Below are positions 16,375 through 35,539 of a stretch of 64,000 nt of DNA, piece by piece (within the stretch, counting starts at the first letter, position 1; each line of letters begins with the position of its first letter). Origin of the DNA: an uncultured Candidatus Rokubacteria bacterium. GTDB taxonomy: Bacteria > Methylomirabilota > Methylomirabilia > Rokubacteriales > CSP1-6. The notes below the pieces were generated by a model, which worked only from the letters and a program-made list of their open reading frames with translations, searched no databases and had not been told where the DNA came from. The DNA is taken from the NCBI GenBank assembly GCA_963771355.1, contig CAVYTA010000006.1:2464001-2528000 (forward strand), given 5' to 3'. The position numbers and the translations under genes were made by a program.

Positions 16375-16392
16375 GGGGCTTCGCACCACATG

Positions 16393-16890: not shown

Positions 16891-16986
16891 GGTATGCCTC
16901 CTGTTCGGGTTCGGCCTCGGATCGAGGTCTCTACCGCTAGTCGTTCGAGGAAGCAGAGATCGACACATCCAGATCGACGGGCGACC

Positions 16987-17013
16987 CGTCCGCTCGACTT
17001 CGAGTCAGGCGTG
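16987..17013 (-). repeat. Degenerate attC left arm (R''-L'' remnant)
   Basis: Minus strand GCCTGAC-TCGAAG-TCGAGCGGAC overlapping the stop codon; CAGGCGTG here matches the gene's 5' end (17263-17270). Confidence 0.4.
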
Positions 17014-17265: not shown

Positions 17266-17303
17266 GCCTGGTCAGCCGACACCCCGATCCTCAGCTTGCC
17301 GCG

Positions 17304-19121: not shown

Positions 19122-19327
19122 TAGCTTGAAACCTTAGGTGGCAAGACCCATAGTGAGATCTCACCCAATGATTTTACAGGACTCGCCGGGAAATGAACTG
19201 AGAAGGATGGGCCGGCCGGCGGCGGCGGCGGCGGGGCCACGATCGGGCCTCGACTCCGAGGCCCCATCCAGGCATGCTTATAGACAATCTCCTGACAGTT
19301 CACAGCTAGGCGACGGAGACCTCAGCG

Positions 19328-20185: not shown

Positions 20186-20841
20186 GGTCGGCCATGCACC
20201 ACCGCGACCAGGTGCGAGGACGTCGTCTCCCGCTGCTGGCCGGCCTTCTGCTCTCGCTGATCGCGGCCCCGGACGCGCACGCCGGAGAGTGGGAGACCAT
20301 GCGTGAGAACTACGACAACACGCTCCGGACTCATGCCAAGCGGATCGCCGAGATCGAGGCCAGGGAGCGCGGGGGTCCGGCGGACCAGGAGAAGCGCGCG
20401 GACAAGATCACGAGGGATCGGATCGCCGGAATCAGGGGCTCCCTGAAGGGCGGCGGGAAGGCCCGGAGCCTGGCCGACGCCGCGGGGAGGGCGTCCGGGG
20501 ACCCGAGATCATTGAGCGACGTGGACCAAGAGCAAGGCCAGTACCTCGAGGTCGTCAAGAACGAGTGGCGCGCGGAAGGGGCGGAACGGAGGACGCTCCG
20601 CGAGTCCCTCGCGGCCCTCCCGAAGAACCTCGAGCGCACCAATGCGAGCCTGGCGAGGACGATCGAGGTTGCCGAGGCCACCACCATGCACGTGCCGCAT
20701 TCCGGCGTGCTCGAGAGGGTCGCGGAGATCGAGGGCGAGGCGAAAGAGCGGGCGAAATGGGAGCACGACCGGGCCGCGCGCGAGCGGGAGCGCCAGCAGA
20801 GAGAGCGCGAAGCCGCTGAGCGCGAGCGGGGCGTGCGGTGA
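20182..20841 (+). CDS. Hypothetical secreted helical/coiled-coil protein
   Basis: Signal peptide ending 'AHA'; charged helical body; GTGA overlap with upstream gene. Confidence 0.65.
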   Translation: MRSAMHHRDQVRGRRLPLLAGLLLSLIAAPDAHAGEWETMRENYDNTLRTHAKRIAEIEARERGGPADQEKRADKITRDRIAGIRGSLKGGGKARSLADAAGRASGDPRSLSDVDQEQGQYLEVVKNEWRAEGAERRTLRESLAALPKNLERTNASLARTIEVAEATTMHVPHSGVLERVAEIEGEAKERAKWEHDRAARERERQQREREAAERERGVR

Positions 20842-20845
20842 AGAC

Positions 20846-22759
20846 TTAGAGGTCGAGCTGGCCGCCGACCACCCGCGCGTAGTAGCCCTGCTCGGCGAGG
20901 AGGTCTTCGGGGGCACCCATCTCGGTCAACCGGCCCCCGTCCACGACCAGGATCTTGTCGACCCGCCGGATGGTGGTGAGCCGGTGGGCGACCATCAACG
21001 TCGTGCGACCGCGCATCAGCGCGAAGAGGCTGGCCACGACCTGGGCTTCGCTCTCCACGTCGAGCGCGCTCGTCGGCTCGTCCATCAATAGGATCGGCGC
21101 GTCCTTCAGGAACGCCCGGGCCAGGTTGATCCGCTGCTTCTCTCCGACACTCAAGTGCGCGCCCCCATCCCCGATGACCGTCCGATAGTGCTGGGGTAGC
21201 TTCTGGATGAGCTCGTCGGCCCGGGCGGCGTGCGCGGCGGCCTCGATCTCCTCCATCGTCGCGTCGGGCTTCCCGTAGGAGATGTTCTCGGCCACGGTGG
21301 TGGGCAGGATGATCGGCTCCTGCAAGACCAGGGCGATCTGGGCCCGCAGGTCCTCCAGGCGAAGGTCGCGCAGGTCCACGCCTTCCAGGAGCACGGCACC
21401 GCGCGCGGGGTCGAAGAAGCGCGGCAGCAGGTTCAAGAGCGTCGTCTTGCCGGCGCCGCTCGGACCGATGATGGCCGCCGACGTGCCCGCCAGGAGCTTG
21501 AAGCTGACGTGGTGCAACGCCGGCCGCGAGCTCTCATACGCGAAGGAGACGTCGTCGTAGGCGACGTTGCCGTAGACCGGGAGCGGGGGCCGCGGCGGCC
21601 CGGCACGCCCGCCTCCGGCGGCGGCGAACATGTCGTCGGCCGAGGTGGGGAGCTCCGCCGGTCCGTAGAGGTCCCGGCCCTGGTAGACCCGGCGCGCCTC
21701 CGGGCGGTCCTTCACCTCCTCGGGCGTGTCCAGGATCTCGAACACCCGCCCGGTGCTCGCGCGGGCGCTCGACAGGGTGGCCCCGACCTGCGAGAGTTGA
21801 TGGAGCGGCTCGAAGAGCTGGGCGACGTAGGCAAGAAACACCAGCAGCTCCCCCACCGACAGGTTGGCGTCCAGCACCTGCTGAGCGCCCACCCAGGTCA
21901 CCCCGAGCGTGCACACGCTCAGGATCACCGAGATCGAGCCCCAGTAGAAGACCTCGAGCCCCTGCTGCGCCATCTTGTGCTGGCGCGCCTTTTCGGTGTG
22001 CGCCGTGAAGCGCTGCCGCTCGTGGTCCTCACGCGCATGGCTCTGAATCAGCGGCAGGGCGGTGATCCCCTGGTGGATCAGCGCGTAGACTTTGCCCTCC
22101 GCTTGCTGGGCGGCCGTGCCCCGGATCCGCATCGCCCGTCCGAAGACATTGATCGACAGCACCAGGATCGGTACCGCGACCAGGGCCACCGCGGTGAGGC
22201 GCAAGTTCAGCCGGGCCATCGCCACCGCCATGAACAGGAGCGTGCCGGTGGCGCTGAGGAAGATCAGCAACCCCTGCAGGAACAGGGTTTGAAAAGCGAC
22301 CGTGTCCGTCCCGGCGCGGAAGATGATGTCGCCCGCCTGGGTGCCGTGGTGATAGCGCAGCGAGAGGCGCTGGAGCCAGCCGAACACCTCATCGCGAACC
22401 CGCCGCAAACCCCGGAGGCCCACCCCGATCGAGAGGTACACGTGCCCGGCACAGGCGGCGGCGTGCGCCAGGTGAAGGGCCAGCGACGCCGCCACGATGG
22501 TGGTGAGCATGGCGGGCTGCCCCCAGGACTGCACCCCGTCCGGCAGCCACCCGGGGTACGGCTTGCTGCCGAGGATGTTGTCGACCAGGAGGGCCAGGGG
22601 CCAGGGCTTGAGCAGGTTGAGCCCGATGCTGAGGAGCAATAGACCCAGGGACAGGGAAATTCTTCCAGCATCAGGGCGGAAGTAACCCAGCGCCCGGAGC
22701 AACTGGCGAAAACGTCCAACAGCAGAGCTGATTTCGCGCGTCAAACCGTTGGGATCCAT
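20846..22759 (-). CDS. ABC exporter, fused permease/ATPase (MdlB/MsbA-like)
   Basis: 'LLKPWPL', Walker A 'GPSGAGKT', 'LSVGEKQR', 'MDEPTSALD', 'AHRL'. Confidence 0.93.
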   Translation of the reverse strand: MDPNGLTREISSAVGRFRQLLRALGYFRPDAGRISLSLGLLLLSIGLNLLKPWPLALLVDNILGSKPYPGWLPDGVQSWGQPAMLTTIVAASLALHLAHAAACAGHVYLSIGVGLRGLRRVRDEVFGWLQRLSLRYHHGTQAGDIIFRAGTDTVAFQTLFLQGLLIFLSATGTLLFMAVAMARLNLRLTAVALVAVPILVLSINVFGRAMRIRGTAAQQAEGKVYALIHQGITALPLIQSHAREDHERQRFTAHTEKARQHKMAQQGLEVFYWGSISVILSVCTLGVTWVGAQQVLDANLSVGELLVFLAYVAQLFEPLHQLSQVGATLSSARASTGRVFEILDTPEEVKDRPEARRVYQGRDLYGPAELPTSADDMFAAAGGGRAGPPRPPLPVYGNVAYDDVSFAYESSRPALHHVSFKLLAGTSAAIIGPSGAGKTTLLNLLPRFFDPARGAVLLEGVDLRDLRLEDLRAQIALVLQEPIILPTTVAENISYGKPDATMEEIEAAAHAARADELIQKLPQHYRTVIGDGGAHLSVGEKQRINLARAFLKDAPILLMDEPTSALDVESEAQVVASLFALMRGRTTLMVAHRLTTIRRVDKILVVDGGRLTEMGAPEDLLAEQGYYARVVGGQLDL

Positions 22760-23079
22760 GGAGGCAATTGACTCAAGGCAGCAAGCCACGTGCCACGCCG
22801 CTCGGGCGAATCCGGACCACCGACGAGGCCTTGAAACTTGCCGACTTCTTGGGGCCTGGTCATCGGTCGTCGCGGCGACGGCATCGGGTCACCATGTAAT
22901 TCCTACACAAGCGACCATGTAGGGCGGCCGATCTCGGGGTCCCTGCCCCGTGAGTGAGCACCGCGACCGGACAGCGGCAGCGCGAAGCCCTGGGGGTCCC
23001 CCCCGTTCGCTTCAGACAGGTGAGATCAGTTCTCGAGTCGGATTCAACGGATTTCATGAGCAACTTGGGCCGCTTTCCA

Positions 23080-23150
23080 CGCAAACTTCGGAGCGGTCAT
23101 GCTCGTTCCCATCTGCGCTCATGCTGGGCCGCTCCAGCCATTTCCTAGGT
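23080..23150 (-). repeat. Degenerate attC
   Basis: Minus strand ACCTAGG-AAATGG-CTGGAGCGG...CCGCTCC-GAA-GTTTGCG, overlapping the gene stop. Confidence 0.5.
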
Positions 23151-23471
23151 GGACTCACCCGTCGCACCGACGTCAGAGAAGGATGACACGATTTCGAAGG
23201 GGGCGTGGCCGTCCACATGATAGAGCTTTCCCCCGTCCTTCACGAAACCCGTGAGCAGTCGGCGCAGAAGGCTGGCCGCCAGGCACAATGCCTGAAGCGA
23301 GCTCGCACCGCGAACGTCGGGCAACTTGTCGTAGAGACCCGTGAGAACCACCGGGCAGGCCCATTCGTGAGGGTCGATTGCGTAGGGGCGTCCAATGCCG
23401 GCCCTGACGTCAAACCGATCTCCCTTTGGACGCGACGCAACGAGCTTCTCTTCGGCTATGAGTTTGGCCAT
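23145..23471 (-). CDS. Hypothetical protein (DUF6968-like)
   Basis: 'IGRPY...EWACPV...GASSLQALCLA'; ATG follows upstream stop. Confidence 0.65.
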   Translation of the reverse strand: MAKLIAEEKLVASRPKGDRFDVRAGIGRPYAIDPHEWACPVVLTGLYDKLPDVRGASSLQALCLAASLLRRLLTGFVKDGGKLYHVDGHAPFEIVSSFSDVGATGEST

Positions 23472-23478
23472 CTCTCGA

Positions 23479-24468
23479 CTATTGAACGGTGTAGTCCGCG
23501 CGCTGTAGCAGGGCCGGCGGAATCGTGAGGCCGAGCGCTCGGGCGGTCTTGAGATTGATCGCCAGCTCGAACTTGATCGGCGGCTCCACGGGAAGGTGTG
23601 CGGGGTTCGCGCCACTGAGGATTCGGTGGACGTAGGTGGCGCAACGACGATATAGATCGCGCCGGTCGGTGCCGTACGACATGAGGCCTCCGGCGTCCAC
23701 GAATTCCCTGAGTCCATAGATGGCCGGGAGCCGGCTCATTGCCGCGAAGTCGAGGATCCGCGTCCGGTACGTGAACGTGAAATAGTCTTCCACCGCGATG
23801 AGCGCGTCGATCTGGTCGAAGAGCGCCGTCTCGAACAGCTGTTCGAAAGGCTCGGATCTCTGCAGCTCGAGACGCGTGAGCTTTACTCCCATGGCCCGGG
23901 CTACCCTATCCGTGTCTCTCACGATCAGCGGAGCGGTGAGGTCGCCCGGATTCCAGAGGATGCCGACCCGCGATAGCGCGGGCACCGCCTCCTTAAGGAG
24001 CTGCAATCGCTTGCCGCCCAGCTCAGGCGGGGCCGTGATATACAGCCCGGTGACATTCCCTCCCGGCCGAGCCAGGCTGGCCACGATGCCCTCGAGAGCC
24101 GGGTCGCCACTCGACGCCATGACGATCGGTGTCGTTTGCGTGGCGTGCTTGGCGGCCAGCGTCGCCGGGGTTCCCCGCGTCACGATCACGTCGACCTTGA
24201 GCTGGACCAGCTCGGTCGCGAGGTCCGAGAACCGCTCCGGGCGGCCCTCCGCCGAACGGTACTCGAGCACGAAGGTCTGCCCCTCCACGTACCCGAGTTC
24301 GGCCAGCCCTTGGCGGAACGCGCTGAGGTTCGCCGCGTTCGACGCGACGCCCACGATCTCCAGCACCCCGATGCGGTGAACCTTCCCCGTTGGCTGCGCG
24401 GCGGGGGTGAGCGGCGCGGCCAGAATGAGTACGGCCACAACCAGGCTGAGTGCGGGTAGGCGGTTCAC
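23479..24468 (-). CDS. ABC transporter substrate-binding protein (ABC_sub_bind/PF04392-type)
   Basis: 'FRQGLAELGYVEG', 'SLARPGGNVTG', 'GGLMSYG', 'LPVEPPIKFELAINLKTA'. Confidence 0.92.
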   Translation of the reverse strand: MNRLPALSLVVAVLILAAPLTPAAQPTGKVHRIGVLEIVGVASNAANLSAFRQGLAELGYVEGQTFVLEYRSAEGRPERFSDLATELVQLKVDVIVTRGTPATLAAKHATQTTPIVMASSGDPALEGIVASLARPGGNVTGLYITAPPELGGKRLQLLKEAVPALSRVGILWNPGDLTAPLIVRDTDRVARAMGVKLTRLELQRSEPFEQLFETALFDQIDALIAVEDYFTFTYRTRILDFAAMSRLPAIYGLREFVDAGGLMSYGTDRRDLYRRCATYVHRILSGANPAHLPVEPPIKFELAINLKTARALGLTIPPALLQRADYTVQ

Positions 24469-24983
24469 GGGTCGGCCAGCATCTTCCGGATGCGCTCCAC
24501 CTCTGACGCGGGCATCCGCTTGAACAGCGGTCTCACCGTGTAGTTGCCAACCATCTTCCCGTTTCGCATGTAGACCCAGTCCGAGATGTCGCCCTCGGCA
24601 ATCTCGATCCGATCGCCAAATTTCACACTCCCCACGATATTGGGCTCATTGTCGATCGTGCCCAGTATCTTACCGTCGCGTCGGGCGATGCCCGTGGCCC
24701 AAAAATATTCCGTGCCCCTCTGGTCGGTCACCATGACTTTCAATGCGAAGCTACTATCTCCTTGCGCTGGCTTCTCGAAGACCTGCCAGAAGGCTGGAAG
24801 CGTGCTCCGTGCTTGTGCGATGGCGCCAAGCATCTCTGGATCGTCTGCCTCGATATTCACCATCTTGTTGTGCTCGCGCTCGGAGCAGGCGATCAGGGAT
24901 CCCGCCAGCACTCCCACCAAGAGGACGGAGATAGCCCTGCGACTCATGCGCTGCGGCCAAACGATGGAAGGGTCAGGCGTCAT
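24465..24983 (-). CDS. YegJ/DUF2314 family lipoprotein
   Basis: 'DDPEM..AI..AR.TL', 'GTIDNEP', 'ISDWVY..GKMVGNYT'; 'LIA-C' lipobox. Confidence 0.85.
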   Translation of the reverse strand: MTPDPSIVWPQRMSRRAISVLLVGVLAGSLIACSEREHNKMVNIEADDPEMLGAIAQARSTLPAFWQVFEKPAQGDSSFALKVMVTDQRGTEYFWATGIARRDGKILGTIDNEPNIVGSVKFGDRIEIAEGDISDWVYMRNGKMVGNYTVRPLFKRMPASEVERIRKMLADP

Positions 24984-25594
24984 TTCTCGGTAAGGGCAAG
25001 CTTGGCCCCCAACCCGGCGAAGGCGGCGGCAAAGCCATAGCGCAGCCAGCTTTGCACCCGGGCTGACTCCACCACGAGCCTCTGAAAGGCGTGCGCGACA
25101 AAGCCATAGACGACAAAGACTGTGAACGTCATGGCCATGAAGACTGCGCTCAGAAGAAGGAGCTGCCAGAGAGGTTGGCCGGCAGTGGGATCAACGAACT
25201 GGGGCAGAAAGGCCAAGAAGAAGATGGTCAGCTTGGGGTTCAGGATGTTGAGCAGGACGGCCTTGATGACCAGGCCGGCGGCAGAGGTCTTGGAAAGACC
25301 GCCATCCACCGCAAATGCGGACTGGTCGCGCCAGGTTGCATATGCCACGTAGAACAGGTAGACCACGCCGGCGTACTTGAGGACCTGGAAAGCCAGGGCA
25401 CTGGCATGCATGACCGCCGCCAGGCCCAGCACAGTAGCCATGAGATGAGGAACGATCCCTGCCGTGCACCCGATAGCGGCGTACACGCTGGCCTTTCGAC
25501 CTTGGGCCAGGCCCGTCGACACGGTGTAGATGACGCCCGTCCCAGGAATGAGCACGACCACGAGCGACGTGATGAGGAATTCGAGGCTGATCAT
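24980..25594 (-). CDS. LysE/RhtB family translocator
   Basis: 'IPGTGV', 'NILNPKLTIFFLAFLPQF'. Confidence 0.92.
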   Translation of the reverse strand: MISLEFLITSLVVVLIPGTGVIYTVSTGLAQGRKASVYAAIGCTAGIVPHLMATVLGLAAVMHASALAFQVLKYAGVVYLFYVAYATWRDQSAFAVDGGLSKTSAAGLVIKAVLLNILNPKLTIFFLAFLPQFVDPTAGQPLWQLLLLSAVFMAMTFTVFVVYGFVAHAFQRLVVESARVQSWLRYGFAAAFAGLGAKLALTEK

Positions 25595-25869
25595 GAGTTC
25601 CCCTGCTGATACGGCGCGGCGGAGCGGGGCGCATCAGACAGCTGCTCGTCCAGAGACTGGCGATACCGCAGGCAGCCCCGAAGAAACTCGGGCCATGTAG
25701 GGACCGTCGGCAGGGGGTCGGTCTTCTCGGGCAGGAGGCCCCAGAGCGCCGGGTGATGCCAGCAGAGCGCGTGTCCGGTGCTGTCACGATGCGCTCGGAT
25801 CCCGGCGCGCAACCGCCTCGCCTCGGCAACCAGTTGCTCGCGTGTCATCGCTTCGAGGTCCTCGTCCAC
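25591..25869 (-). CDS. Conserved hypothetical protein
   Basis: 'IRAHRDSTGHALCWHHP.LWGLLPE'; AAGGAG RBS before GTG. Confidence 0.75.
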   Translation of the reverse strand: MDEDLEAMTREQLVAEARRLRAGIRAHRDSTGHALCWHHPALWGLLPEKTDPLPTVPTWPEFLRGCLRYRQSLDEQLSDAPRSAAPYQQGNS

Positions 25870-25892
25870 GATATCTCCTTACCCCCGCGGCG

Positions 25893-25992
25893 AGCTAACG
25901 TTGAAGCTCGCCAGCGTTCCCGCGGCATTCAGCTCGGGCGGTCAGCCGCGCGGCGCTTTGGCCGCGTCGGCTGCACCGGCTTGTTGGACGCC
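25893..25992 (-). repeat. Chimeric/damaged attC
   Basis: Minus strand GTCCAAC-AAGCCGGTGCAGCCGAC...CGGCTGACCG joined to a non-matching right arm GCTTCAAC-GTTAGCT. Confidence 0.7.
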
Positions 25993-26357
25993 CGCCTCGT
26001 TGAACTCGCGCCGAGTTCCTTTTTTAGACGTTCGAAGTAGCGACGCTTGGCCCGTTCGACCACCTTCGGATCGTCGCGGTACCGACGCTTCGGCTTGTCG
26101 GCTCTCTTGGCTTCGACAACTTCAATCGACACTCTATCTCCTACACGGAGACGTTGGCTCCACCACTTCAAGTGCTCCTTGGATTCACTATCAAGCCCAC
26201 TCAGTTCAGCAGTGAGCTCCTCTTCTATGGTCTTGCCATCGCGCCCGTTCTCGGCCTTCCGCCGCACCCACGTGATGATGGCAGACAACACGCCGAAGGC
26301 GCGGACTCCGGCCGTGCATATGTACTCTCCATTGATCGACAGCTTGAAGGCAATCAT
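25929..26357 (-). CDS. Hypothetical cassette protein (ORF reads into its attC)
   Basis: GTTAGAC..GGAG-ATG start; the C-terminus 'SNKPVQPT' is translated attC. Confidence 0.75.
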   Translation of the reverse strand: MIAFKLSINGEYICTAGVRAFGVLSAIITWVRRKAENGRDGKTIEEELTAELSGLDSESKEHLKWWSQRLRVGDRVSIEVVEAKRADKPKRRYRDDPKVVERAKRRYFERLKKELGASSTRRASNKPVQPTRPKRRAADRPS

Positions 26358-26890
26358 CTCCGTACCGATCGGCGTCTAACCCCCTTTGCCGCCGCTGACG
26401 AGCGCCGTTTGTGACGACGCGATGGAACTTCTCTTCTCGGGGCATAGATCGTCGTGGCTATGGTGCCTCCGACATTGGCGACAGCACGAAGAAGTTTCGG
26501 ACTGAGAGAGGTCTCGCAAGGGCCTGCTGTCTTGCCGGGTCCCCGCGGGTACCAGCGGCCGGACCCCACCGGCCGTTCATACAACAGACTCACGAACTCC
26601 CCACCCTCATATCCGACGTTGAAAACACGTGACTCCGCGTGCCTCCACAGTCGACCGGCTCTGGGCGGAAGTGACTCGACCACCTTGAGCAGGGCCCAGA
26701 TCGTCTGTTCCGGCGTCAACGGTCTCACCGACTTTGCTTCGATCCTCGCAAGACACTTCCGCCGAACTTTGCCAACATGGAGGACGAGACTTCGGGGCTC
26801 CACGGCGGCCGCAAATGCGGCGAGATCCTCCCGCGACCACACCTCCAGGTCGACATTGATGAAGTGAGGCCCGCTGAAAGCGAGCCCCCG
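26354..26890 (-). pseudogene. Hypothetical cassette gene with no clear start, reading through an attC remnant
   Basis: Protein-like 'GPHFINVDLEVWSREDL..' begins right after the upstream stop, with no ATG or RBS. Confidence 0.5.
26371..26410 (-). repeat. attC right-arm remnant (R' GTTAGAC at 26374-26380)
   Basis: GTTAGACGCC matches cassette end GTTGGACGCC (25983-25992) at 9/10. Confidence 0.65.
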
Positions 26891-26891
26891 C

Positions 26892-27617
26892 TTAGATATA
26901 GAGGTCCTGAGCACTGTGCCACTCGTGTCCGAGGTTGCGCATGACAAGAGCGCAGTCGAACGCCACGCTTCCTCTCGGAAATCTCGCCTCGTCGGAGAAG
27001 TAAGTGGAATGAACTTCTTCCACTTGGAGAGGCTCCACGCTCCATCCCTGCGTCCGAAGCTCGATCCCGTCGAGCCGGCCCGCATCACTCGTGACGGAAT
27101 AGCCGACGGAGCCGGGCTCAAAGAAAGCAGACGCCTCCGCAAGGGACGAGAAACATGATGAGCTGGGAAGCCCGCCCCCGTCGAGCCTCCCGCGGAGCCT
27201 CACCGACACTTCGCGATCGTCGGACTGCATGCTGAGGTCGATGCCGTCCGAGGCCTCTCGGACGGAGAAACGGGCGCGGTGATGCTCTCCGGGGAAGAGC
27301 CGACCGCCGGCGAAGTGGTTCATGGCCGACCCTGTGTCCCGGCGCGGAATAAAGACCCCCTCCTTCTCGCTGTCCTCCGCCAGCCAACGCACAGCGACCC
27401 GGTGGGCGGCATTCTCACTTGAGAGGCCGAGGAGGGAGGGAACGAATCGGGGGCGGACAGACTCTAGCCGGATCAGACAGATCCCGGCGATGGAATGGCC
27501 CCGATGAAGCTTTGGGCGAAAGCGCGATGGAAGCTGCGTCTGCATGACGACTGGGTCGATCCTGAAATTCACGAGTATGCGTCGCCGAATCACGCCCTGG
27601 ATGACCGGGAGCCGCAT
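26892..27617 (-). CDS. DUF2071-like protein
   Basis: 'IRRRILVNFR.DP', 'GICLIRLE', 'SENAAHR', 'FDCALVMRN'. Confidence 0.8.
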   Translation of the reverse strand: MRLPVIQGVIRRRILVNFRIDPVVMQTQLPSRFRPKLHRGHSIAGICLIRLESVRPRFVPSLLGLSSENAAHRVAVRWLAEDSEKEGVFIPRRDTGSAMNHFAGGRLFPGEHHRARFSVREASDGIDLSMQSDDREVSVRLRGRLDGGGLPSSSCFSSLAEASAFFEPGSVGYSVTSDAGRLDGIELRTQGWSVEPLQVEEVHSTYFSDEARFPRGSVAFDCALVMRNLGHEWHSAQDLYI

Positions 27618-27641
27618 GTTCGCCTGTCCCCATTCTGTGGA

Positions 27642-28040
27642 CTAGCTTTTGGCTGTGGACTTGTTCAGGGCCACGGCGGCGCGAACGAGAGTCTTCAACG
27701 CCTTCTCGTCTATCTTTTCGCCCTCGTGGAAGTCGATGGCCCGCCTTGTGTTCCCGTCAAGACTGGAGTTGAAGAGGCCCGAAGGATCCTTCAGAGCCGC
27801 CCCTTTGGCGAAGGTCATCTTCACGACGGTCTTGTAAGTCTCGCCTGTGCAGATCAATCCGTCGTGCGACCACACCGGAACCCCTCTCCACTTCCACTCC
27901 TCGACGACCTCGGGATCGGCTTCCTTGACTAAGGTGCGGAGCCGGCTGAGCATCTCGCCCCGCCAGTCGCCTAGCTCCTTGATTCTCGCGTCGATCAGCT
28001 GAGAAGGAGACTTGCTGTTCTGCGACCCGCTCTTCTTCAT
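27642..28040 (-). CDS. DUF1801 (YdhG-like) protein
   Basis: 'DWRGEML', 'EEWKWRGVPVW', 'FNSSLDGNTRRAID'. Confidence 0.9.
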   Translation of the reverse strand: MKKSGSQNSKSPSQLIDARIKELGDWRGEMLSRLRTLVKEADPEVVEEWKWRGVPVWSHDGLICTGETYKTVVKMTFAKGAALKDPSGLFNSSLDGNTRRAIDFHEGEKIDEKALKTLVRAAVALNKSTAKS

Positions 28041-28130
28041 GCCCGTTTCTCTTCCTTACTTGCGAGGCTTTGATAAATGGGGGTCACCGCCGCCGTGCCG
28101 ATTTTACGCTCTTATGCGCCATGACCGCAG

Positions 28131-28640
28131 TCAGCCAGTTGACGCCGTCGGCATGAGCATGTTCAGAAAGTCGGAGAGATGGTGGGCCACTAGTCTCCCC
28201 GGGTGCGGCCCGATCTGGTGCTCCGCCGCAATGTTGTCGTGATAGACCTGATACACGGGCGGGTCTTCTTTCTCCAGAGGGATGAAATACGGATCGCCGA
28301 TGCCGTCACCATCAGCTGCGATGCAGACGAACCCGAGAGGGAGAATATCGCACCCCGGCGTGAGTTCGCTTGATTCAACGGCCATGTTGCCCGGGTCGGC
28401 CAGGATAATGTAGCTCCGTCCGTCGAAATCATCCTCGGGCGGATAGGCCTGCCAGAATAGCTCCGCACCGCAGAGCGAGTAGTTCTGGAGCAGAGCGCTC
28501 AGCCACGGAGGAAGGGTCAGTCCAAGGGAAGTTGCAAGTGCAGTGTACTGCTCCTCCGTTGCCATAAACGAGCCAGCGCCAGCAGAGCGAAGCCGTTCAC
28601 ACAACGCATTCGCGGCGGCGTGGAGCGCGGGGCTCATCAT
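28131..28640 (-). CDS. SMI1/KNR4-like protein
   Basis: 'LGLTLPPWL', 'IAADGDG.GDPY', 'VYQVYHD', 'VAHHLSDFL'. Confidence 0.6.
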   Translation of the reverse strand: MMSPALHAAANALCERLRSAGAGSFMATEEQYTALATSLGLTLPPWLSALLQNYSLCGAELFWQAYPPEDDFDGRSYIILADPGNMAVESSELTPGCDILPLGFVCIAADGDGIGDPYFIPLEKEDPPVYQVYHDNIAAEHQIGPHPGRLVAHHLSDFLNMLMPTASTG

Positions 28641-28650
28641 GGCGAGGTCC

Positions 28651-28695
28651 GGCTAATGCCCAAGCTCAGCCGTCGGCTGGAGCACCTTGTTAGCC
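28651..28695 (-). repeat. Shortened attC (45 bp) with mutated R' (ATTAGCC)
   Basis: Minus strand GGCTAAC-AAGGT-GCTCCAGCCG-A-CGGCTGAGC-TTGGGC-ATTAGCC; the TAA is the gene's stop. Confidence 0.8.
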
Positions 28696-29124
28696 GCTGC
28701 CATGTTTGCGTAACACCTCTGCCGACAACCGATCAAGAAGCTGCTCGTTTGCCGGCACTAAGATTCGCTCCATGCGGCGACCAACATCAGGATTCTCGAA
28801 GTCTTGATTCCAACCGACCAGAGTCCCACCATCTGCGGTTGGCTCTAGAGTTACTGTCAGGAGATACCGTGGCTGTGATACGTGGTGAATAACGATCCTC
28901 TTGGGCGGCTCAATCTCCGTAATGACAATTTCATTGGGATAGTTCTTCCCGTCCGGCCCGTGCATCGTGAACGACCATTTCCCGCCTGGCTTAAACTCAT
29001 AAGTCTTGAAGGTATTGGTGAAACCAGCCGGTCCCCACCAAACTGCTAGGCGAGCGTCGTCCTCGAACGCAGCAAAGACACTCGATGGCGGTGCGGCAAT
29101 CTTGCGTGACGCCTGGAAGGTCAT
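28690..29124 (-). CDS. SRPBCC/AHSA1 family protein (cassette)
   Basis: 'WWGPAGFTNT', 'MHGPDGKNYPN'; stop inside R''. Confidence 0.9.
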   Translation of the reverse strand: MTFQASRKIAAPPSSVFAAFEDDARLAVWWGPAGFTNTFKTYEFKPGGKWSFTMHGPDGKNYPNEIVITEIEPPKRIVIHHVSQPRYLLTVTLEPTADGGTLVGWNQDFENPDVGRRMERILVPANEQLLDRLSAEVLRKHGSG

Positions 29125-29164
29125 AGCATTTACGCTCCTGCAACCCGACATGTTGTTCCGCTGA

Positions 29165-29192
29165 AGCGGCAAACGGGCAGGCTGAGCGGCCA
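29165..29192 (-). repeat. attC right-arm remnant (L'-R')
   Basis: Minus strand GCCGCTCAGCCTGCCC-GTTTGCCGCT; 9/10 match to cassette end at 28689-28698. Confidence 0.65.
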
Positions 29193-29602
29193 CGACGGAC
29201 GCCAAGCAGCGGTGAAAAGTGCCCCACTCCCGTTGCCGTGTCCCAAAAGACGATGGGGACGCTGCCGCGAGCGAGGCTGGCGGCAAGCCGTCTCAGACTC
29301 GTTGCCGGCAGTATCGGGACTCCAAGCTCACGGGCCCGACGGTAAAGGCGACGTTCCAACGGGGTTGGCCTGGGATCTCGGTTCGAGTGGAATTGAACTG
29401 AGAGGCCGTGCTCGGCCAGGGCGGTTGCCAGTCCGATCGTGAACACCCCGTGGCGTCGTGTGTACCTGCACGCTTTGATCAGCCTCGCCGCCGACACCCT
29501 CTTCCCGAAGTGTCGGAGCACCGTCTACGCTGCCAGCAAGCCGCAATGGCCATCCGTCGCAAGGAGTTTCCTCGGCGCATCGGCGTAGTCGGGGAACTCC
29601 AT
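29175..29602 (-). pseudogene. Peptidase C39-like cassette gene with internal TAG and 3' truncation
   Basis: 'DGHCGLLAA*TVLRHFG...GHFSPL'; in-frame TAG at 29525-29527. Confidence 0.6.
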
Positions 29603-29613
29603 GTCAGCTATCC

Positions 29614-29679
29614 GCCGAACGCCAGCATCGGCCGTTTGCGGAGCGGAGCGGTGCAAATCGGCTGCATGCCGTGTTGGGT
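29614..29679 (-). repeat. attC (66 bp)
   Basis: Minus strand ACCCAAC-ACG-GCATGCAGCCG...CGGCCGATGC-TGGC-GTTCGGC. Confidence 0.85.
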
Positions 29680-29740
29680 GGCAGTGACGGTCATGAGGAG
29701 TTGAAACGCGATTTGTACTCCATGATGCCAAACGCCAACT

Positions 29741-30310
29741 TCAGCGCGTGATCCTCTTCAGATCGTGGCGCATGATCGGGCGAGATGGCGTACGGCGCGC
29801 AACGATCTTGAAGCCAGCGCGCGCGAACGCCGAGGCTGTGCCCGTGAAAACATTCGAGGTACTTTCCGGTCGCGCCGTGTCAACCGGATAAGCTTCGAGG
29901 GCGGGCGCCTTGGCGCGCTTGGCGGCTTTCACTGCCGCGGTGATCAAGGCCGACCGGACGCCCTGCTTGCGATAACCCCGCCGCACATAAAAGCACGAGA
30001 TAGACCAGACGGGCACTTCATCAATGCGCTCAAAATGTCGCGCGCGATTGAGCCAGCCCAACGCATCGCGGGGCGTGAGCTGGCACCAGCCCACGGCCAG
30101 TTCACCGTCAAAAGCTAGCAAGCCCGGGGGTGGACCACGCTTCACGATCTCCCGAATGGCCGTTCGGTTTTTTGCTCGCGGGCGCTTGTGGTAGGCGCTG
30201 CCGATCCTCCAATACATGCACCAGCAGCCATTACTGGCACCCCCCTTCCCGAACAAGTCTTCAAAAGCAGGCCAGAGATTGGGCGTGAGTGGGCGGATCG
30301 TAAGCTGCAT
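29741..30310 (-). CDS. GNAT family N-acetyltransferase (cassette)
   Basis: 'GCWCMYWR', 'VGWCQLTPR', 'SCFYVRRGYRKQGV', 'LEAYPVD'. Confidence 0.9.
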   Translation of the reverse strand: MQLTIRPLTPNLWPAFEDLFGKGGASNGCWCMYWRIGSAYHKRPRAKNRTAIREIVKRGPPPGLLAFDGELAVGWCQLTPRDALGWLNRARHFERIDEVPVWSISCFYVRRGYRKQGVRSALITAAVKAAKRAKAPALEAYPVDTARPESTSNVFTGTASAFARAGFKIVARRTPSRPIMRHDLKRITR

Positions 30311-30355
30311 ATCGTATTCCTATACCTTTGCTCGGTTGTCAATTTGCGGAGTGCC

Positions 30356-30419
30356 ACCCAACGTCGAGCTAACCGGCGCTGCGGCTGTTTGCAGCGTCCG
30401 GTTAAGCGCCCAGTTAGGC
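30356..30419 (-). repeat. attC (64 bp)
   Basis: Minus strand GCCTAAC...TTAACCGGACGCTGC..GCAGCGCCGGTTAG...GTTGGGT; the TAA is the gene's stop. Confidence 0.9.
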
Positions 30420-30776
30420 GCTCGCTCTTCCAATTAGCCAGCGACACGTTGGCACCAGTATGCCTATCCCGACAGCCTGGTAAACGGGGGTAAAAAGAAC
30501 CGCAATTCCGCCCTGTGGGTCGGGATGGAGAAAAATGACATAGGTGAGGAATAGCAGTCCGCCCACCGTGACAATCGCGACAACCACAACATAAGCGATC
30601 GCCGACGCGCGTTCCTTGGCGAAGAACGTTAGCCCCAACGCAAGGGCTGCATATGGAAGTACAAGCCACACTGTAAAGAATGCCGCTGCACCAAGGCTAT
30701 TGGGCTTCAATACATTTACGAACGCGAGGCTCACCAAAGCGGAGACCGCGAGTATCGCGTAACTGAGAGCCTTCAT
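30414..30776 (-). CDS. Hypothetical 4-TM membrane protein (cassette)
   Basis: Hydrophobic 120 aa; 'HPDPQGGIAVLFTP'; low GC. Confidence 0.8.
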   Translation of the reverse strand: MKALSYAILAVSALVSLAFVNVLKPNSLGAAAFFTVWLVLPYAALALGLTFFAKERASAIAYVVVVAIVTVGGLLFLTYVIFLHPDPQGGIAVLFTPVYQAVGIGILVPTCRWLIGRASA

Positions 30777-30799
30777 AACCTGCCGGCCATCCTATTCGC

Positions 30800-30869
30800 G
30801 CCTAGCGATTTGCGGCTCAGCGGCGAGGGCGGCGAAGCCGACCGAGTCCGCTGCAGCCGCGGGTTAGGC
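30800..30869 (-). repeat. attC (70 bp), R' mutated GTT to GCT
   Basis: Minus strand GCCTAAC-CCGCG-GCTGCAGCGGAC...CCGCTGAGCCGCAAATC-GCTAGGC. Confidence 0.9.
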
Positions 30870-30901
30870 GACTGAAGGCTAAGCTTCACGGAGCGCCGGG
30901 T

Positions 30902-31294
30902 TTACCGCCCCGCTCCAGCCGGCAACCATCGGGCGGCAGCATCGGCGCTATCGTCGGGCCGTGTATTGAAGGCTATTGCCGCACCTGGGGCAGCTTTATG
31001 AACAGCGTTGATGACGGCTTCGAATAGTGCAAGGCCCCGGGGCGGCAGCCGGACTCCGGCTCCGATGACAACACAATCATAGCTCTTAGTAGCTAATTGA
31101 CGCTCAACTGCCGGCCCAGCGGTTTCATTCGGCCGGATGTAGCCAACATCGGCCTCCCATCCGCGTTCAGCGAACTGCTTCAGCGCAACCGCAATGCCGG
31201 CGTGAATCTTCTCGACGGTCATACCTGGCGGCAAGGCAGGGTCGGAGAAATCCACAGTTTCCGGATCGTAGCCGACGAGCAGAATCCTCGTCAT
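30902..31294 (-). CDS. Conserved hypothetical protein (cassette)
   Basis: 'YDCVVIGAGVR', 'IAFNTRPDDS..AAARW'; GAGGGAGG RBS. Confidence 0.85.
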   Translation of the reverse strand: MTRILLVGYDPETVDFSDPALPPGMTVEKIHAGIAVALKQFAERGWEADVGYIRPNETAGPAVERQLATKSYDCVVIGAGVRLPPRGLALFEAVINAVHKAAPGAAIAFNTRPDDSADAAARWLPAGAGR

Positions 31295-31337
31295 GAGCCC
31301 TCCCTCGTTTTGCTGCTGTCTCACTCTAGCGCGGGTC

Positions 31338-31425
31338 GCCTAACGCTAGGTTTCAGGCGCGGCGGATAGCGGGAGCGAGGCACGAGTGGACGCTGTTCGC
31401 CGTCGCCTGCAAACCCTTGTTAGCC
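31338..31425 (-). repeat. attC (88 bp)
   Basis: Minus strand GGCTAAC-AAGG-GTTTGCAGGCGAC...CGCCTGAAACC-TAGC-GTTAGGC. Confidence 0.9.
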
Positions 31426-31517
31426 AGCATGTTGATGCCCAACTTACCCATCGACCATGAAACGCAAACGGCCTGGGGCTTCTGCGACAAACACACGACC
31501 AATGCTTCATCTGATAT

Positions 31518-32198
31518 TCAGTGGCTCCGCAGGCCACCGCCGGTGAGGTGCATGATCACGAACAGCAGGGCCAGGCCGATGGCGTGGATCCCAACCACGT
31601 AAACTCAGCGTGGGGCCCTGGTGGCGGATCCCAGACCCGGCCCCACGTCGGATCCGGGATGGGAGGGCAGGTCAGCCAGCGACACCTTACGCCGCTCGTG
31701 CTGCTTACGCCGCCCGTACGGGGTCATGCCCCACGGCTTGTATACCGCGAGCACCGTTGCCGCGAGCAACACCAGCAGGCCGCCCCCAGCGTGCACCACG
31801 AGGTGAATCCGCTGCGCGCGGAAGTCTGTAGCGGACAATGTGGTCTCTGCCGCTACGCCTGCCATGGCTGTTACTGCCTGCATGTGCCGCAGCAACACCA
31901 TGGTGGCACTCGTGATCAGAAGGAACTTCGCCAAGACCCACCAGTGCCGGAACAAGCCCCACTGAGTTCCCAGTGACTCGACAAGCCCGGCGAGCAGTGT
32001 AGCGAGGCTGAATGGGACGATGATGTACCAGCCGATGAACTCCATCGAGAGGTAGGCGGCACGCACCATCTGAGCACTGTGGCTGGTCAGACCGACGATG
32101 GATAGAGCGAGGTAGGCAACGACCGCGCCGAGCCAGCCGACCGACAAAATGATATGCGCGGTGAGCGCGAACTTGCGAAGACTTGGTGTCATGGTCAT
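31518..32198 (-). CDS. DUF2269-like membrane protein with internal TGA at 31605-31607
   Basis: 'RKFALTAH..SVGWLGA', 'WGLFRHWWV..K', 'YKPWGMT'; frame continues past TGA as 'VYVVGIHAIGLALLFVIMHLTGGGLRSH'. Confidence 0.8.
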
Positions 32199-32208
32199 GC
32201 CTTATGCG

Positions 32209-32295
32209 GGCTAACGCTGCCAGTGAGCGGCGCGGTCTCCGGCCGCTACATCGCCCCTCACCGTTCCCCGCGGCCGCTCGATTGGCTGGTTAGAG
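32209..32295 (-). repeat. attC (87 bp)
   Basis: Minus strand CTCTAAC-CAGCCAATCGAGCGGCCGCGG...CCGCGCCGCTCACTGGCAGC-GTTAGCC. Confidence 0.88.
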
Positions 32296-32313
32296 GTTGC
32301 GATGACGGAGGCG

Positions 32314-33303
32314 CTACTCAATGACATGGTCTGCTAGGGCCAGCAACGAGGGTGGGATCGCGAGGCCGAGCGTCTTTGCGGCCCGAAGGTTGATGACCAG
32401 CTCAAAGTGGATCGGTTGCTCCACGGGGAGTTCAGCGGGCTTGGCGCCCTTCAGGATCCTGTCAACGTAGCTGGCGGCCTGCCGAAACTGTTCCGTCAGC
32501 TTCGGCCCGTATGACAGGAGTCCCCCCGCCTCAACATTCTCACTGCGCTGGAATATGGTTGCGAGTCGGGCCTGCCGGGCCAACTCCGCAATTTGCCGGC
32601 GCTCACTTATGAACAGTGGATCGGGGAGGATCACGACGCCTGCCACGCCAGCACGGGCTATTGCTGCAAAGGCCGATCCCAATTCCTTCGGCTCTCTGAC
32701 CGCGACATGCTGGAGCTGTATCCGCAATGACTCGGCGGCGACCTGGGTATCTCGCCACATGAGCGCAGACCCAGGATTCGTTGTGTTTCGCAAGACGGCG
32801 AGCCGTGTCGCAGCGGGGCGGACCTCCTTGATTAGCTGCAGTAACTTGCCGCTGACATCTCGGGAGACATTGCTGACGCCGGTGACGTTCCCGGCAGGTC
32901 GCGAGAGGCTAGCCACCAGCCCACTCCCGACCGGATCGCCGACAGAGACCATAACGATCGGAATGGTGCGAGTCGCGCGCTTGGCGGCAAGCGTCGCCGG
33001 CGTGGTCCACGCGACGAGAACGTCCACTTTCGAGCGGACGAGATCGGTAGCCAGGCGGTCCAATTCGGGTTCAGCGCCCGCGCTCGATCTCAGCTCCAAG
33101 ACGAGATTCTGTCCCACGGAGTATCCGAGCTCCCGTAACCGCCCTCGCAATGGCTCGACGTGCTGCGCGGCCGCTGTCGCCGGGACCGGGAGGAGTACAC
33201 CGACCCGGTACTCCTGCGCGGCTCGCGGCGCATCGGCCAGGAGCGACGCGGCGAGAATCCCGGCAAGGGCGACGACGATCGTGACGATGGGTCTAACCGT
33301 CAT
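32314..33303 (-). CDS. ABC transporter substrate-binding protein (PF04392-type), cassette 2
   Basis: 'LRELGY', 'GDPVGSGLVASLSRPAGNVTG', 'GGLLSYG', 'LPVEQP..FELVINL'. Confidence 0.92.
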   Translation of the reverse strand: MTVRPIVTIVVALAGILAASLLADAPRAAQEYRVGVLLPVPATAAAQHVEPLRGRLRELGYSVGQNLVLELRSSAGAEPELDRLATDLVRSKVDVLVAWTTPATLAAKRATRTIPIVMVSVGDPVGSGLVASLSRPAGNVTGVSNVSRDVSGKLLQLIKEVRPAATRLAVLRNTTNPGSALMWRDTQVAAESLRIQLQHVAVREPKELGSAFAAIARAGVAGVVILPDPLFISERRQIAELARQARLATIFQRSENVEAGGLLSYGPKLTEQFRQAASYVDRILKGAKPAELPVEQPIHFELVINLRAAKTLGLAIPPSLLALADHVIE

Positions 33304-33348
33304 GACTCGCTTTGGTAGCACTCCAACCGGATGAGGCAATCCATGAAC

Positions 33349-33403
33349 CTCTAACGCACCATTCAGCGGCGGCGGAGCCGTCCGCTGCAATAGGCAGTTG
33401 TCC
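33349..33403 (-). repeat. attC (55 bp)
   Basis: Minus strand GGACAAC-TGCCT-ATTGCAGCGGAC...CCGCTGAAT-GGTGC-GTTAGAG. Confidence 0.85.
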
Positions 33404-33437
33404 GACCGCAGGCAACTGTACGCCCCCTCGTCCGTGA

Positions 33438-34412
33438 TCACTCGATCAGCCGATCAGCGCGCAGGAGCACCGCCGGCGGGAACGTGACGCCTTGAGCTTT
33501 TGCCGTCTTGAGATGAAGGACCAACTCGAAGTGCGTCGGCTGCTCAACGGGGAGCTCGGCTGGGTTTGCGCCTCTCAGGATCTTGTCGATGAAGGTGGCG
33601 CCGGAGCGGTACTGCTCGATCGTGCTGAAGGAGTACGACATCAGGCCGCCTGCGTCCGCAAATTCATTCTGCCCGTACACGGCAACCTGACGCTGGGCGT
33701 TCACCAATTCCACAATACGTCCGCGTTGGGAGACGAAGAACGCGGCTGAGAGGACATAGAGCACGTCTGGCCGCTCGGACTTCAGCACCTTGAAAGCGGC
33801 GATCAGATCCTCCGGTGATCGCGCCTCGATCATCCTCAGGTTCAGTGCGAGTGTCGCCGCCGCCTGCTTCAGAGTGGGAAGCATTCGTACTAGGGGCAGG
33901 TTCGTCGGGTCGTGCAGCAGCGCCACACGCGAGGCCGAGGGGAACACTTCTTTGAGGAGCTGCAATATCTTGATCTGAAACTCCTCCGCCTGATTGCTGA
34001 GCCCGGTCGCATTGGTCCCCGGCCGTCGCAACGCCTTGATGATCCCAATCCCTACCGGATCTGAGACGGCGACGAACACGATCGGGATCGTCGTCGTCGC
34101 CTTGGATGCCGCGAGGGTCGCTTGAGAGCCGGCCGCGAACAAGACATCGGGCCTGAGCGCGACCAGTTCCGCGGCCAGCGCGGACAACCGGTCGAACCGC
34201 CCCTCCGCGAACCGCCGCTCGACCACAAGGTTGTGTCCCTCGCGGTAGCCGAGCTCGGCGAGCGCCCTGAACAGGGCTCGTTGATTCGGCGCATTGACCG
34301 CCGGTGAAGCCGGGACTAGGTAGGCCAGCCGGTGGGGGCGCTGCTCTGCACTCGCCCATGCGGTCATTGCGAACGAGGCTGCGCCCGTCAGAATCTCCCT
34401 GCGCGTGGTCAT
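33438..34412 (-). CDS. ABC transporter substrate-binding protein (PF04392-type), cassette 1
   Basis: 'TRREIL' N-terminus; 'LAELGYREG', 'RPGTNATG', 'GGLMSYS', 'LPVEQPTHFEL'. Confidence 0.92.
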   Translation of the reverse strand: MTTRREILTGAASFAMTAWASAEQRPHRLAYLVPASPAVNAPNQRALFRALAELGYREGHNLVVERRFAEGRFDRLSALAAELVALRPDVLFAAGSQATLAASKATTTIPIVFVAVSDPVGIGIIKALRRPGTNATGLSNQAEEFQIKILQLLKEVFPSASRVALLHDPTNLPLVRMLPTLKQAAATLALNLRMIEARSPEDLIAAFKVLKSERPDVLYVLSAAFFVSQRGRIVELVNAQRQVAVYGQNEFADAGGLMSYSFSTIEQYRSGATFIDKILRGANPAELPVEQPTHFELVLHLKTAKAQGVTFPPAVLLRADRLIE

Positions 34413-34444
34413 ACGACGAGACAAATCTTCATCGGTCGTGGTTC

Positions 34445-34477
34445 GGACAACTAGAATTATCTAGTTCTGTGTAGCGC
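34445..34477 (-). other. Candidate attI recombination site
   Basis: The first cassette starts at GTTGTCC (34451-34445), preceded by AT-rich GAACTAGATAATTCTA rather than an attC hairpin. Confidence 0.65.
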
Positions 34478-34669
34478 TGGGGACGGTGCGGGCGGGGCCC
34501 AGATCGCATGGAGGGGTGAGTTCCCTGCCGGTCGAGGATGGCTGCTCGGGCGCGCAGTTGAGAAGGTGCGGGCGCCGCGGGGCGCCGGGATAGGCAGACC
34601 GGTGTAGCGCGGTGTACGCCGCGGGCTCGGCGGCGGGCGGGAGGGCGGCGCACCGCGGCCGCCACGGGC

Positions 34670-35539
34670 TTAGATCATCTCCGCCTGGGCGCTCATGGCG
34701 ACTGTGCCCGCGGGCGTGACGGCCCAGAGCTCGCAGCCGCGGCCGTCGGCGGTGGGGCGGCCGCGCAGCTCGAAGGGGGCGCCGAGGAAGAGCGGCGCGC
34801 GCGCCTGGGTGGTGTAGGAGCGGAAGGGGCGGCCGGGGTTCGCGTCGCGGGCGAAGTCGATGAGGAGCGTAGAGGTCAGGGGGCCGTGGACCACCAGCTC
34901 CGGGTAACCCTCCACGTCCATCGCCCAGGCGCGGTCGTAGTGGATGCGATGGCTGTTGAACGTCAGCGCAGAGAACCGGAACAGGAGCACGGGGTCGGGC
35001 TCCACGCGGCGACGCCAGGGGACGTCGGTCGGCGCCTCCTCGCGGCGCGGTGCCTGGTTCCGGTCGCCGGCCTTGACCTCCTCGCGGAACACCGTGCGGC
35101 GCTCTTCCTCGATGGCGAGGCCCTCGGGCCCGAAGATGCGGTTGACCACGGTGGCGAAGACGAGGGGGCCGGTGCCGCCCTCCTTCATCGAGATGTCGCG
35201 GAGCTCGGACTCGCGCCGGAGCTGATCGCCCACGCGAAGGGGCCGCTGGAAGAGGAAGCGCTCGCCGGCGAACATGCGGCGCGGGAGCGGCATGGGCGGC
35301 ACCACGCCGGCGTCGCGGGGGCTGCCGTCCGGATGTAGCGCGTCGGGCCCGAAGCGCGGCAGGAAGTACAGGATGTGCCAGCCTGGCGGCAGCGCGTCGC
35401 CCGACGCGAGCTCGGGCCCGGACCGCCCGAAGGTCAGGCGCAGAAGGTTCGCCGGCGCGGCGGTGACGACGTCGCTGGAGACGACGCGCCGTCCGATATG
35501 GGCCTTCAGGCTATCGAGGTCGAGAGCGATCTTGGCCAT
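34670..35539 (-). CDS. MaoC/FAS1-like double hot-dog dehydratase (mesaconyl-C4-CoA hydratase-like)
   Basis: 'LPPGWH', 'PLPRRMFAG', 'LFRFSALTFNSHRIHYD', 'LVVHGPL'. Confidence 0.9.
   Translation of the reverse strand: MAKIALDLDSLKAHIGRRVVSSDVVTAAPANLLRLTFGRSGPELASGDALPPGWHILYFLPRFGPDALHPDGSPRDAGVVPPMPLPRRMFAGERFLFQRPLRVGDQLRRESELRDISMKEGGTGPLVFATVVNRIFGPEGLAIEEERRTVFREEVKAGDRNQAPRREEAPTDVPWRRRVEPDPVLLFRFSALTFNSHRIHYDRAWAMDVEGYPELVVHGPLTSTLLIDFARDANPGRPFRSYTTQARAPLFLGAPFELRGRPTADGRGCELWAVTPAGTVAMSAQAEMI

Follow-up and report, generated by a model that had tools for sequence, protein, structure and literature searches.

We describe an integron cassette array that is headed by an attI site and has no integrase gene, found in the chromosome of an uncultured Candidatus Rokubacteria bacterium. 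The window, by which we mean the whole 64,000-nucleotide stretch analysed, covers positions 2464001-2528000 of contig C6 of this genome (G000; assembly of 5.53 Mb in 8 contigs, 99.77% complete), and the array lies on its minus strand behind a gene for a MaoC/FAS1-like dehydratase. Judging from sequence comparison, we consider it probable that the array is an attI-headed cluster of attC sites lacking an integron integrase (CALIN) that was loaded in trans, i.e. by an integrase encoded elsewhere; loading in trans is likely because the G000 assembly holds four attI platforms and no intact integrase gene (intI). The comparisons below involve above all two congeners of G000, G002 and G003, and two contigs, L093 and L096, the latter being 99.6% identical to G003.

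The array stands out by its GC content, which is 0.618 over positions 23080-34450 against 0.715-0.721 in the flanks, and by its short minus-strand genes. An earlier note, made from the sequence of this DNA alone, had recognised here a chromosomal integron array of an uncultured lineage, devoid of integrase, with seven attC sites, and had proposed a covariance-model search as a check; the seven lie on the minus strand at the coordinates given there. A model built solely from the 12 attC sites of the intI-linked array of G002, and run with filters off, recovered all seven and added an eighth (25927-25989), with E values from 1e-8 to 3.2e-4; the next match in the window falls on the opposite strand of one of these eight (E 0.06). 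The array thus passed this check with eight matches. A rule-based attC scanner, which gave no match at a score of at least 18 in 1 Mb of shuffled genome, scored five of the eight sites at 21-22.5 and site 28651-28695 at 15.5, and missed 30800-30869 and 29614-29679. Bottom-strand folding z values are -3.0 to -4.1 for five of the eight sites and -1.6, -1.9 and -0.8 for the other three. The sites show the anatomy of attC, R''-5 nt-L''...L'-R' with an extrahelical base, and lie on one strand downstream of co-oriented open reading frames (ORFs).

The cassettes themselves are recognisable by the crossover G^TT and by a 5' core complementary to their own R''. Across eight cassettes, 51 of the 56 positions beyond GTT in the 5' core agree with the cassette's own R'', the highest value among all 40320 permutations (mean 29.3), which bears out the matches claimed in the earlier note; a cassette missing from its list (30362-30805) matches at 8/10. 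The note's statement that no tyrosine recombinase gene is present also holds: neither PF00589 nor TIGR02249 has a match in the window (G000 as a whole has 11 PF00589 matches). With eight attC matches to a congener's own model and no integrase gene nearby, the locus is a CALIN; it is not a complete integron, in which intI adjoins attI. Rfam models and tRNA genes had no matches in the window either. The features, listed from the head outwards, are:

34670-35539, minus strand: gene for a MaoC/FAS1-like dehydratase (PF13452), the upstream flank gene, co-oriented with the array
34451-34625, minus strand: attI platform of about 175 bp, homologous to the G002 DNA between the intI stop and attI
34444-34466, minus strand: attI core, top strand ...AACTAGATAATTCTAG^TTGTCC, with L box TAGATAA, 5-nt spacer and R box GTTGTCC
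33355-34450, minus strand: cassette 1, ABC substrate-binding protein (ORF 33438-34424, attC 33349-33403; PF04392, covariance model)
32215-33354, minus strand: cassette 2, ABC substrate-binding protein (ORF ending at 32314, attC 32209-32295; PF04392, core match 10/10)
31344-32214, minus strand: cassette 3, hydrophobic protein of 197 residues and no known family (31605-32198), attC 31338-31425 (covariance model)
30806-31343, minus strand: cassette 4, hypothetical protein (ORF ending at 30902), attC 30800-30869 (covariance model)
30362-30805, minus strand: cassette 5, hydrophobic protein of 120 residues (30414-30776), attC 30356-30419 (covariance model)
29620-30361, minus strand: cassette 6, GNAT acetyltransferase (29741-30310; PF00583), attC 29614-29679 (covariance model)
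29174-29619, minus strand: damaged cassette 7, attC reduced to its R' half (29168-29190)
28657-29173, minus strand: cassette 8, AHSA1/SRPBCC protein (PF08327), shortened attC 28651-28695 with R' ATT (covariance model)
26381-28656, minus strand: older cargo without intact attC, namely SMI1/KNR4 (28131-28640), DUF1801 (27642-28040) and hypotheticals; R' half site 26373-26380
25927-26380, minus strand: cassette with an ORF of 142 residues (25929-26357), attC 25927-25989 with degenerate R' GCT (covariance model E 1.4e-5, fold z -4.1)
23145-25899, minus strand: distal cargo past an R' remnant (25890-25899), namely a small ORF, LysE, DUF2314, an ABC substrate-binding protein and a DUF6968-like protein
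15340-22930, strand not specified: tail that is not cassette-like, an ABC transporter block (17300-22930) and three small genes

The attC sites are whole in the first six cassettes and shortened or halved farther out; below 29700 they are decayed, with half sites at 29168-29174, 26373-26380 and 25890-25899. Entry of cassettes at the head would be expected to leave such a gradient of distal decay.

The head of the array carries what is, by homology, a real attI, as the earlier note had suspected. Its top strand reads GCTACACAGAACTAGATAATTCTAG^TT with the crossover between 34451 and 34450, and homology among relatives ends exactly at this G^TT. In G002 the core recurs with 1 mismatch in 18, at a distance of about 195 bp beyond the stop codon of an intI that points toward it. 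In addition to this homology to an intI-adjacent site, the head position, the order of L box, 5-nt spacer (TTCTA) and R box, and repeated upstream boxes identify the site as attI. The boxes are GCTACAC, at 34602-34608 and 34469-34475, and an inverted GCCTATC at 34589-34595, and we predict from their arrangement that they are accessory integrase sites; attI1 has two upstream direct repeats (PMC4792948, as far as the accessible part of that source goes). The attI element reaches to about 34625, farther than the limit of 34477 given in the earlier note. Among relatives, 16 intI loci could be read at the 3' end of the gene, and 11 of them have an attI-like site at 146-219 bp beyond the stop codon, so that the tandem, Treponema-like orientation is, on these sequences, the usual one in the order. 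Since intI points toward attI and the whole platform lies outside the gene, intI could be deleted without touching the platform. The dehydratase gene has orthologues in 7/7 congeners, and no intI lies between it and the platform.

The attI core is found at four places in G000 (C4:240800, C6:1214301, the window and C8:125059) with 0-2 mismatches in 27 positions; one match at a loose threshold appeared in the shuffled genome. A profile omitting the core finds the same four platforms (four matches with E<=2e-23; the next at 0.26), and 14 of the 15 genome-wide attC-model matches (150 candidates scored) lie behind them. The whole-genome search for IntI that the earlier note had proposed found no intact intI in the assembly, the best TIGR02249 score being 82 bits against a family cut-off of 265. 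Loss of intI is seen directly at two of the other loci. At C4, a search with the cognate IntI reveals a C-terminal scrap of 19 residues, 95% identical to the query, in a region whose orthologue in G002 (92% over 1.6 kb) still has intI; two metagenome contigs of the same locus keep 234 and 44 IntI residues. At 1.21 Mb on C6, a 55-nt scrap of intI is left. Full-length cognate IntI proteins of 326-327 residues occur in metagenomes and are 83-95% identical to the local remnant. At loci with this type of attI, which we call the first type, intI ranges from complete through remnants of many lengths to absent. The platforms of the G002 home locus and of C4 are 59% identical within a flank that is 92% identical, and those of C4 and C8 are 84% identical, from which platforms appear to have been replaced and copied between loci.

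Two of these platform loci have tRNA-like neighbours, noted by eye only: locus L081 and L094, orthologous to C3:37417 in G000, adjoins a tRNA-like gene, and a tRNA-like scrap lies upstream of the C8 platform near C8:125260. The one attC-model match outside the four arrays (C5:1000227-1000280, L171) is near a contig end rich in pieces of substrate-binding genes.

Comparison of the dehydratase locus in relatives, another check named in the earlier note, shows that its content differs, which leaves the array reading unrefuted. The platform follows the dehydratase gene directly in G000, G002, G003, L093 and L096, none of which has intI there, and the gene is followed by other genes in five other congeners. 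Four kinds of first cassette occur at this platform, each starting exactly at G^TT. G000, G003, L093 and L096 have the same junction between dehydratase gene and platform, and these four carry three different first cassettes. Over 1882 bp of flank and platform, L093 matches L096 at 97% identity; their first cassette differs and their second is common to both. As read from the sequences, this is the pattern that attI-directed integration after intI loss would leave. Because different first cassettes occur at the same integrase-less site in close relatives, such sites likely still capture genes, with the enzyme coming from elsewhere.

Arrays elsewhere tell of similar traffic. Pieces of the C4 array of G000 recur in the dehydratase-locus arrays of L093, L096 and G003 at 92-95% identity, against 85-88% for the flanks, and the second cassette at C4 is 96% identical to the first cassette at another orphan attI. 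On one 143-bp contig of run X4, a variant of window cassette 1 is joined exactly at the crossover to a preceding attC arm, 27 letters of which are identical to an attC of the 1.21-Mb array of G000. Loose ends at the crossover in runs X10 and X14 were set aside as evidence, being on short contigs that are not assignable to the window locus.

The earlier note had taken the diversity of the attC sites as a sign of many donors, and here we came to a different view. The attC sites fit the integron model of one congener, and the cassettes have close matches in relatives: cassette 1 is 86.7% identical over its full length (1.1 kb) to the first cassette at an orphan attI of a second type (see below) in G141, from another genus of the same family, and other cassette genes have matches of 94-95% identity in relatives, among them cassette 3 (95% over 317 bp in G159) and the stretch 28119-28644 with the SMI1/KNR4 immunity-family gene carried as cargo (94% in G003). 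Both the fit to one congener's model and these matches suggest a pool shared within the order. A homologue of cassette 4, at 78%, lies within the intI-linked array of G002. In the attC of cassette 4 itself, R' reads GCT in the window and GTT in two further runs.

In established integron biology, IntI acts on attC sites folded from the bottom strand and recombines them with attI at G^TT. Under the reading that we favour, an integron copy would have arrived at a new chromosomal locus, and intI would then have been deleted with the platform retained. IntI from another locus at the time, or from a passing element, would recombine folded attC bottom strands with the orphan attI, new cassettes being added at the head while older ones decay distally, and the array in this assembly would be frozen until an IntI arrives. 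The earlier note had offered loss of intI and service in trans as alternatives, which they are not here: loss is seen directly at C4 and at 1.21 Mb on C6, and cassette change after loss is what we infer from relatives.

An unlikely account, in our judgement, is that the arrays are frozen relics: each would have had its own intI, lost it and remained static since, with the differences in first cassettes either predating separate losses or arising when an intI-less flank spread onto different arrays by homologous recombination. The many different end points of intI decay, the decayed distal attC sites and one population without the attI core suit this account, as does the observation, in the available part of a Xanthomonas study (10.1101/2025.06.18.660453), that arrays are usually identical between strains sharing an intI lesion. 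It fits poorly with four genomes or contigs that have one junction and three first cassettes, two of them 97% identical in the flank, and with array pieces that are closer between C4 and the dehydratase locus than the flanks are. Another account has an intact intI hidden in an assembly gap or an unassembled replicon, which would make the array a satellite of a complete integron resident in the genome. In its favour, the assembly consists of 8 contigs, and other genomes of the order (e.g. G100 and G182) do have one intI and several orphan heads; yet completeness is 99.77%, the locus where a congener keeps intI is assembled with the deletion visible, 0 of 16 contig ends have an attC cluster within 6 kb, and viral contigs contain no IntI closer to the cognate one than about 61% over its full length, so we regard a hidden intI as improbable. 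The attI pattern, too, had no match in viral contigs.

The site at the head could also be something other than attI. IntI inserts cassettes at GWT sites across genomes, according to the portion of the report accessible to us (10.1101/2022.09.11.507474), and cassettes could have entered at such a chance GTT (attG) beside a coincidental palindrome. We find this very hard to credit, since the 27-nt core is present at four places in G000 with 0-2 mismatches, each time with a platform, and beside intI in G002. Insertions at attG, including single attC sites lacking integrases (SALIN), are marked by a site unrelated to attI apart from GWT, and the homology to an intI-linked site refutes this for the window. 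Loading at a dif-like site by XerC/D seems to us just as remote. The plus strand of the site does read as 11-6-11 with a TTAT arm, and two Xer-like recombinases are encoded in the genome; against this, a better dif candidate exists at C6:993563 near the GC-skew turn, one arm of the window site is a variable cassette end, TTAT is not kept in the G002 sites, and the cassettes end in attC hairpins with extrahelical bases, requiring IntI-specific insertion (PMC4792948, in the part available). With one arm variable, the window site does not have the pair of conserved 11-bp arms around 6 bp that defines dif and pdif sites. The candidate at C6:993563-993590 (L054) is likely the dif of this genome and is close to a broken tyrosine recombinase gene (985865-986346).

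Several observations weigh against loading in trans at a live attI. The junction of G002 at the dehydratase locus is shorter, so a second intI loss is possible there, and several arrays at this locus have collapsed attC sites; a former intI is documented at other loci, not at the dehydratase locus itself. The attI core is kept there only modestly better than the platform (24-27/28 against 100-123/~137). For a cassette promoter (Pc), which a complete integron has, there is no sigma-70 consensus match at 34300-34800, and the conserved -10-like hexamer of other platforms, TATCCT/TATTCT, is altered in the window platform. In the G002 assembly both intI and the dehydratase gene carry frameshifts, which makes the integrity of this intI uncertain. 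In runs X9 and X10, from one study, a joint connects 30811 to 34462, i.e. the platform to cassette 5, with four cassettes and the attI core dropped; the R' there is canonical GTT. We rejected it as a cassette excision because it is off the R-box crossover and destroys the attI core, as an ordinary deletion would, and it is the sole attI-to-downstream-attC joint seen in the examined contigs. Activity in trans is read here from assembled sequence, with no recombination, circle or transcript observed. Finally, the attI patterns come from sites that had been found beforehand, and most relatives are fragmented metagenome-assembled genomes that are related to one another; the counts across the order given below are accordingly descriptive and are not tests.

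In the genus, the attI core pattern is found in 6/8 genomes and IntI in 1/8. Mapped on G000, first-type platforms occupy at least 12 different chromosomal loci among close relatives. Sixteen loci were collected from metagenomes, 12 of them with at least 1.1 kb upstream, and 0 of these 12 have a full intI. A second type of attI has 66 sites in 41 of the 183 genomes of the order (0 for the backward pattern as a control): 4 have an intact intI, 3 a near-full one, 21 scraps and 33 none, and 5 have too little upstream DNA, so that 54 of the 61 assessable sites are without a near-full intI. Where a downstream attC is in reach of a second-type site, the first core matches R'' at 7/10 or better in 38 of 39 cases. 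Homology to the intI-linked platform is retained over at least 190 bp in 45 of 58 sites, and 24 end between -190 and -240, at about the intI stop. IntI scores above the cut-off in 67/183 genomes of the order; among 41 relatives, 36 have attC sites and 9 have an IntI above the cut-off. Comparison of empty and filled sites at ten other loci revealed no common junction signature.

At 21 of 82 attI sites the first cassette is an orphan gene for an ABC substrate-binding protein (PF04392), more often than any other kind. The window itself has three such genes (33438-34424, 32314-33303 and 23479-24468). Among the 49 PF04392 matches listed for G000, 41 were examined, and many of those outside arrays are in tandem, with a stop codon touching the next start. 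We rejected the idea that integrons drove the expansion of this family in the genome, since only 5 of the 41 have an attC behind them, all in attI arrays.

The stretch that differs from congeners continues past the array to about 15340. The 5.6-kb ABC transporter block at 17300-22930, with its small neighbours, is found within the tail of the home integron of congeners G002 and G003, and at a core locus in five other congeners, the latter orthologous to C6:447.5-448.5 kb of G000; as the sequences read, these core genes have been relocated twice into array tails. At 26877-26879, contigs of runs X1 and X9 hold 83 extra letters, possibly an attC lost in G000.

How platforms came to so many loci is a question on which we offer a tentative idea, one that we rate as rather unlikely. 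Rokubacteria might possess a distributed integron, in which most genomes hold several integrase-less platforms as standing capture ports and the integrase is a shared good passing through. Platforms would be seeded by a cassette-mimicking IS91-like element at attI, copied with a variable intI scrap by rolling-circle read-through past the 5' end, the element then being excised like a cassette to leave a clean orphan attI. An element that encodes a tyrosine recombinase together with an IS91-type transposase (L244-L272 and L273; G012:C11:81361 onward) was seen at 29 sites in 22 genomes. At 27 of these sites it begins exactly at the crossover, 18 of the starts being attI-like and 9 attC, and its other end is an attC-like hairpin with further cassettes behind it. 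IS91 elements have terIS at the 5' end and a CAAG/GAAC terminus, and CAAG/GAAC is weakly enriched at the left ends of orphan platforms (11/58 where 5.0 would be expected, p about 0.008; three motifs were tried, and the sites are not independent). Counting against the seeding idea, no copy of the element is found in G000 or behind any first-type platform. Movement of platforms as IntI-made circles cut at attG was rejected, for left ends are spread between -46 and -856 and show no enrichment of GTT/GAT (13/58 against 10.1).

CALINs outnumber complete integrons and are usually taken as dead ends or cassette donors, because attI cannot be searched for. If a live attI platform stands at the head of many of them and takes up cassettes in trans, capture capacity would be set by docking sites and not by integrase, and integrase-based surveys would undercount it, as the 36 of 41 relatives with attC against 9 with IntI illustrate. 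The present data yield two attI families for an abundant uncultured soil order, together with a cognate integrase and natural pairs of sites, which makes the question of service in trans directly testable.

In the available text of the study that defined CALINs (PMC4889954), loss of intI is among four listed origins and exchange with integrons elsewhere is proposed. The window array resembles those described there in having two or more attC sites and no intI nearby. CALINs were, however, defined regardless of attI, which was said to be unsearchable in most integrons, whereas this array keeps a full attI platform, one of four in its genome; and the traffic proposed consists of cassettes leaving CALINs, whereas our comparison suggests cassettes entering. 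The open-access literature, taken without supplements and subscription papers, gave us no account of Rokubacteria integrons or of orphan attI sites at multiple loci, and one attI-headed CALIN in print, that of the Shewanella prophage M16-3 (PMC9892861). Like ours, it is an integrase-less array headed by attI; as far as the accessible portion tells, it is a single case beside a complete integron in a prophage, whereas the arrays described here are chromosomal, at many loci and order-wide, with no intact intI in the G000 assembly. Treponema-type integrons have intI and cassettes in the same direction as well, and T. phagedenis has lost intI with attC left behind; there, in what could be consulted of the source (PMC3607928), one syntenic locus per genome is involved and taken as static after the loss, while we find at least 12 loci among relatives and another attI sequence. 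Xanthomonas provides the parallel of frequent intI truncation, several CALIN loci and a mention of mobilisation in trans; it has intI at one locus and arrays that are stable after inactivation, and the pages available do not report attI heads for secondary CALINs (10.1101/2025.06.18.660453). SALIN and attG insertions also place cassettes outside a complete integron, at sites that, per the accessible part of that work (10.1101/2022.09.11.507474), have only GWT in common, unlike the head of the window array, which is a homologue of the integron's own attI. The window adds to this a genome that has four such heads while its assembly lacks an intact integrase gene, evidence at strain level that cassettes change at an attI without integrase, and a count of these sites across an order.

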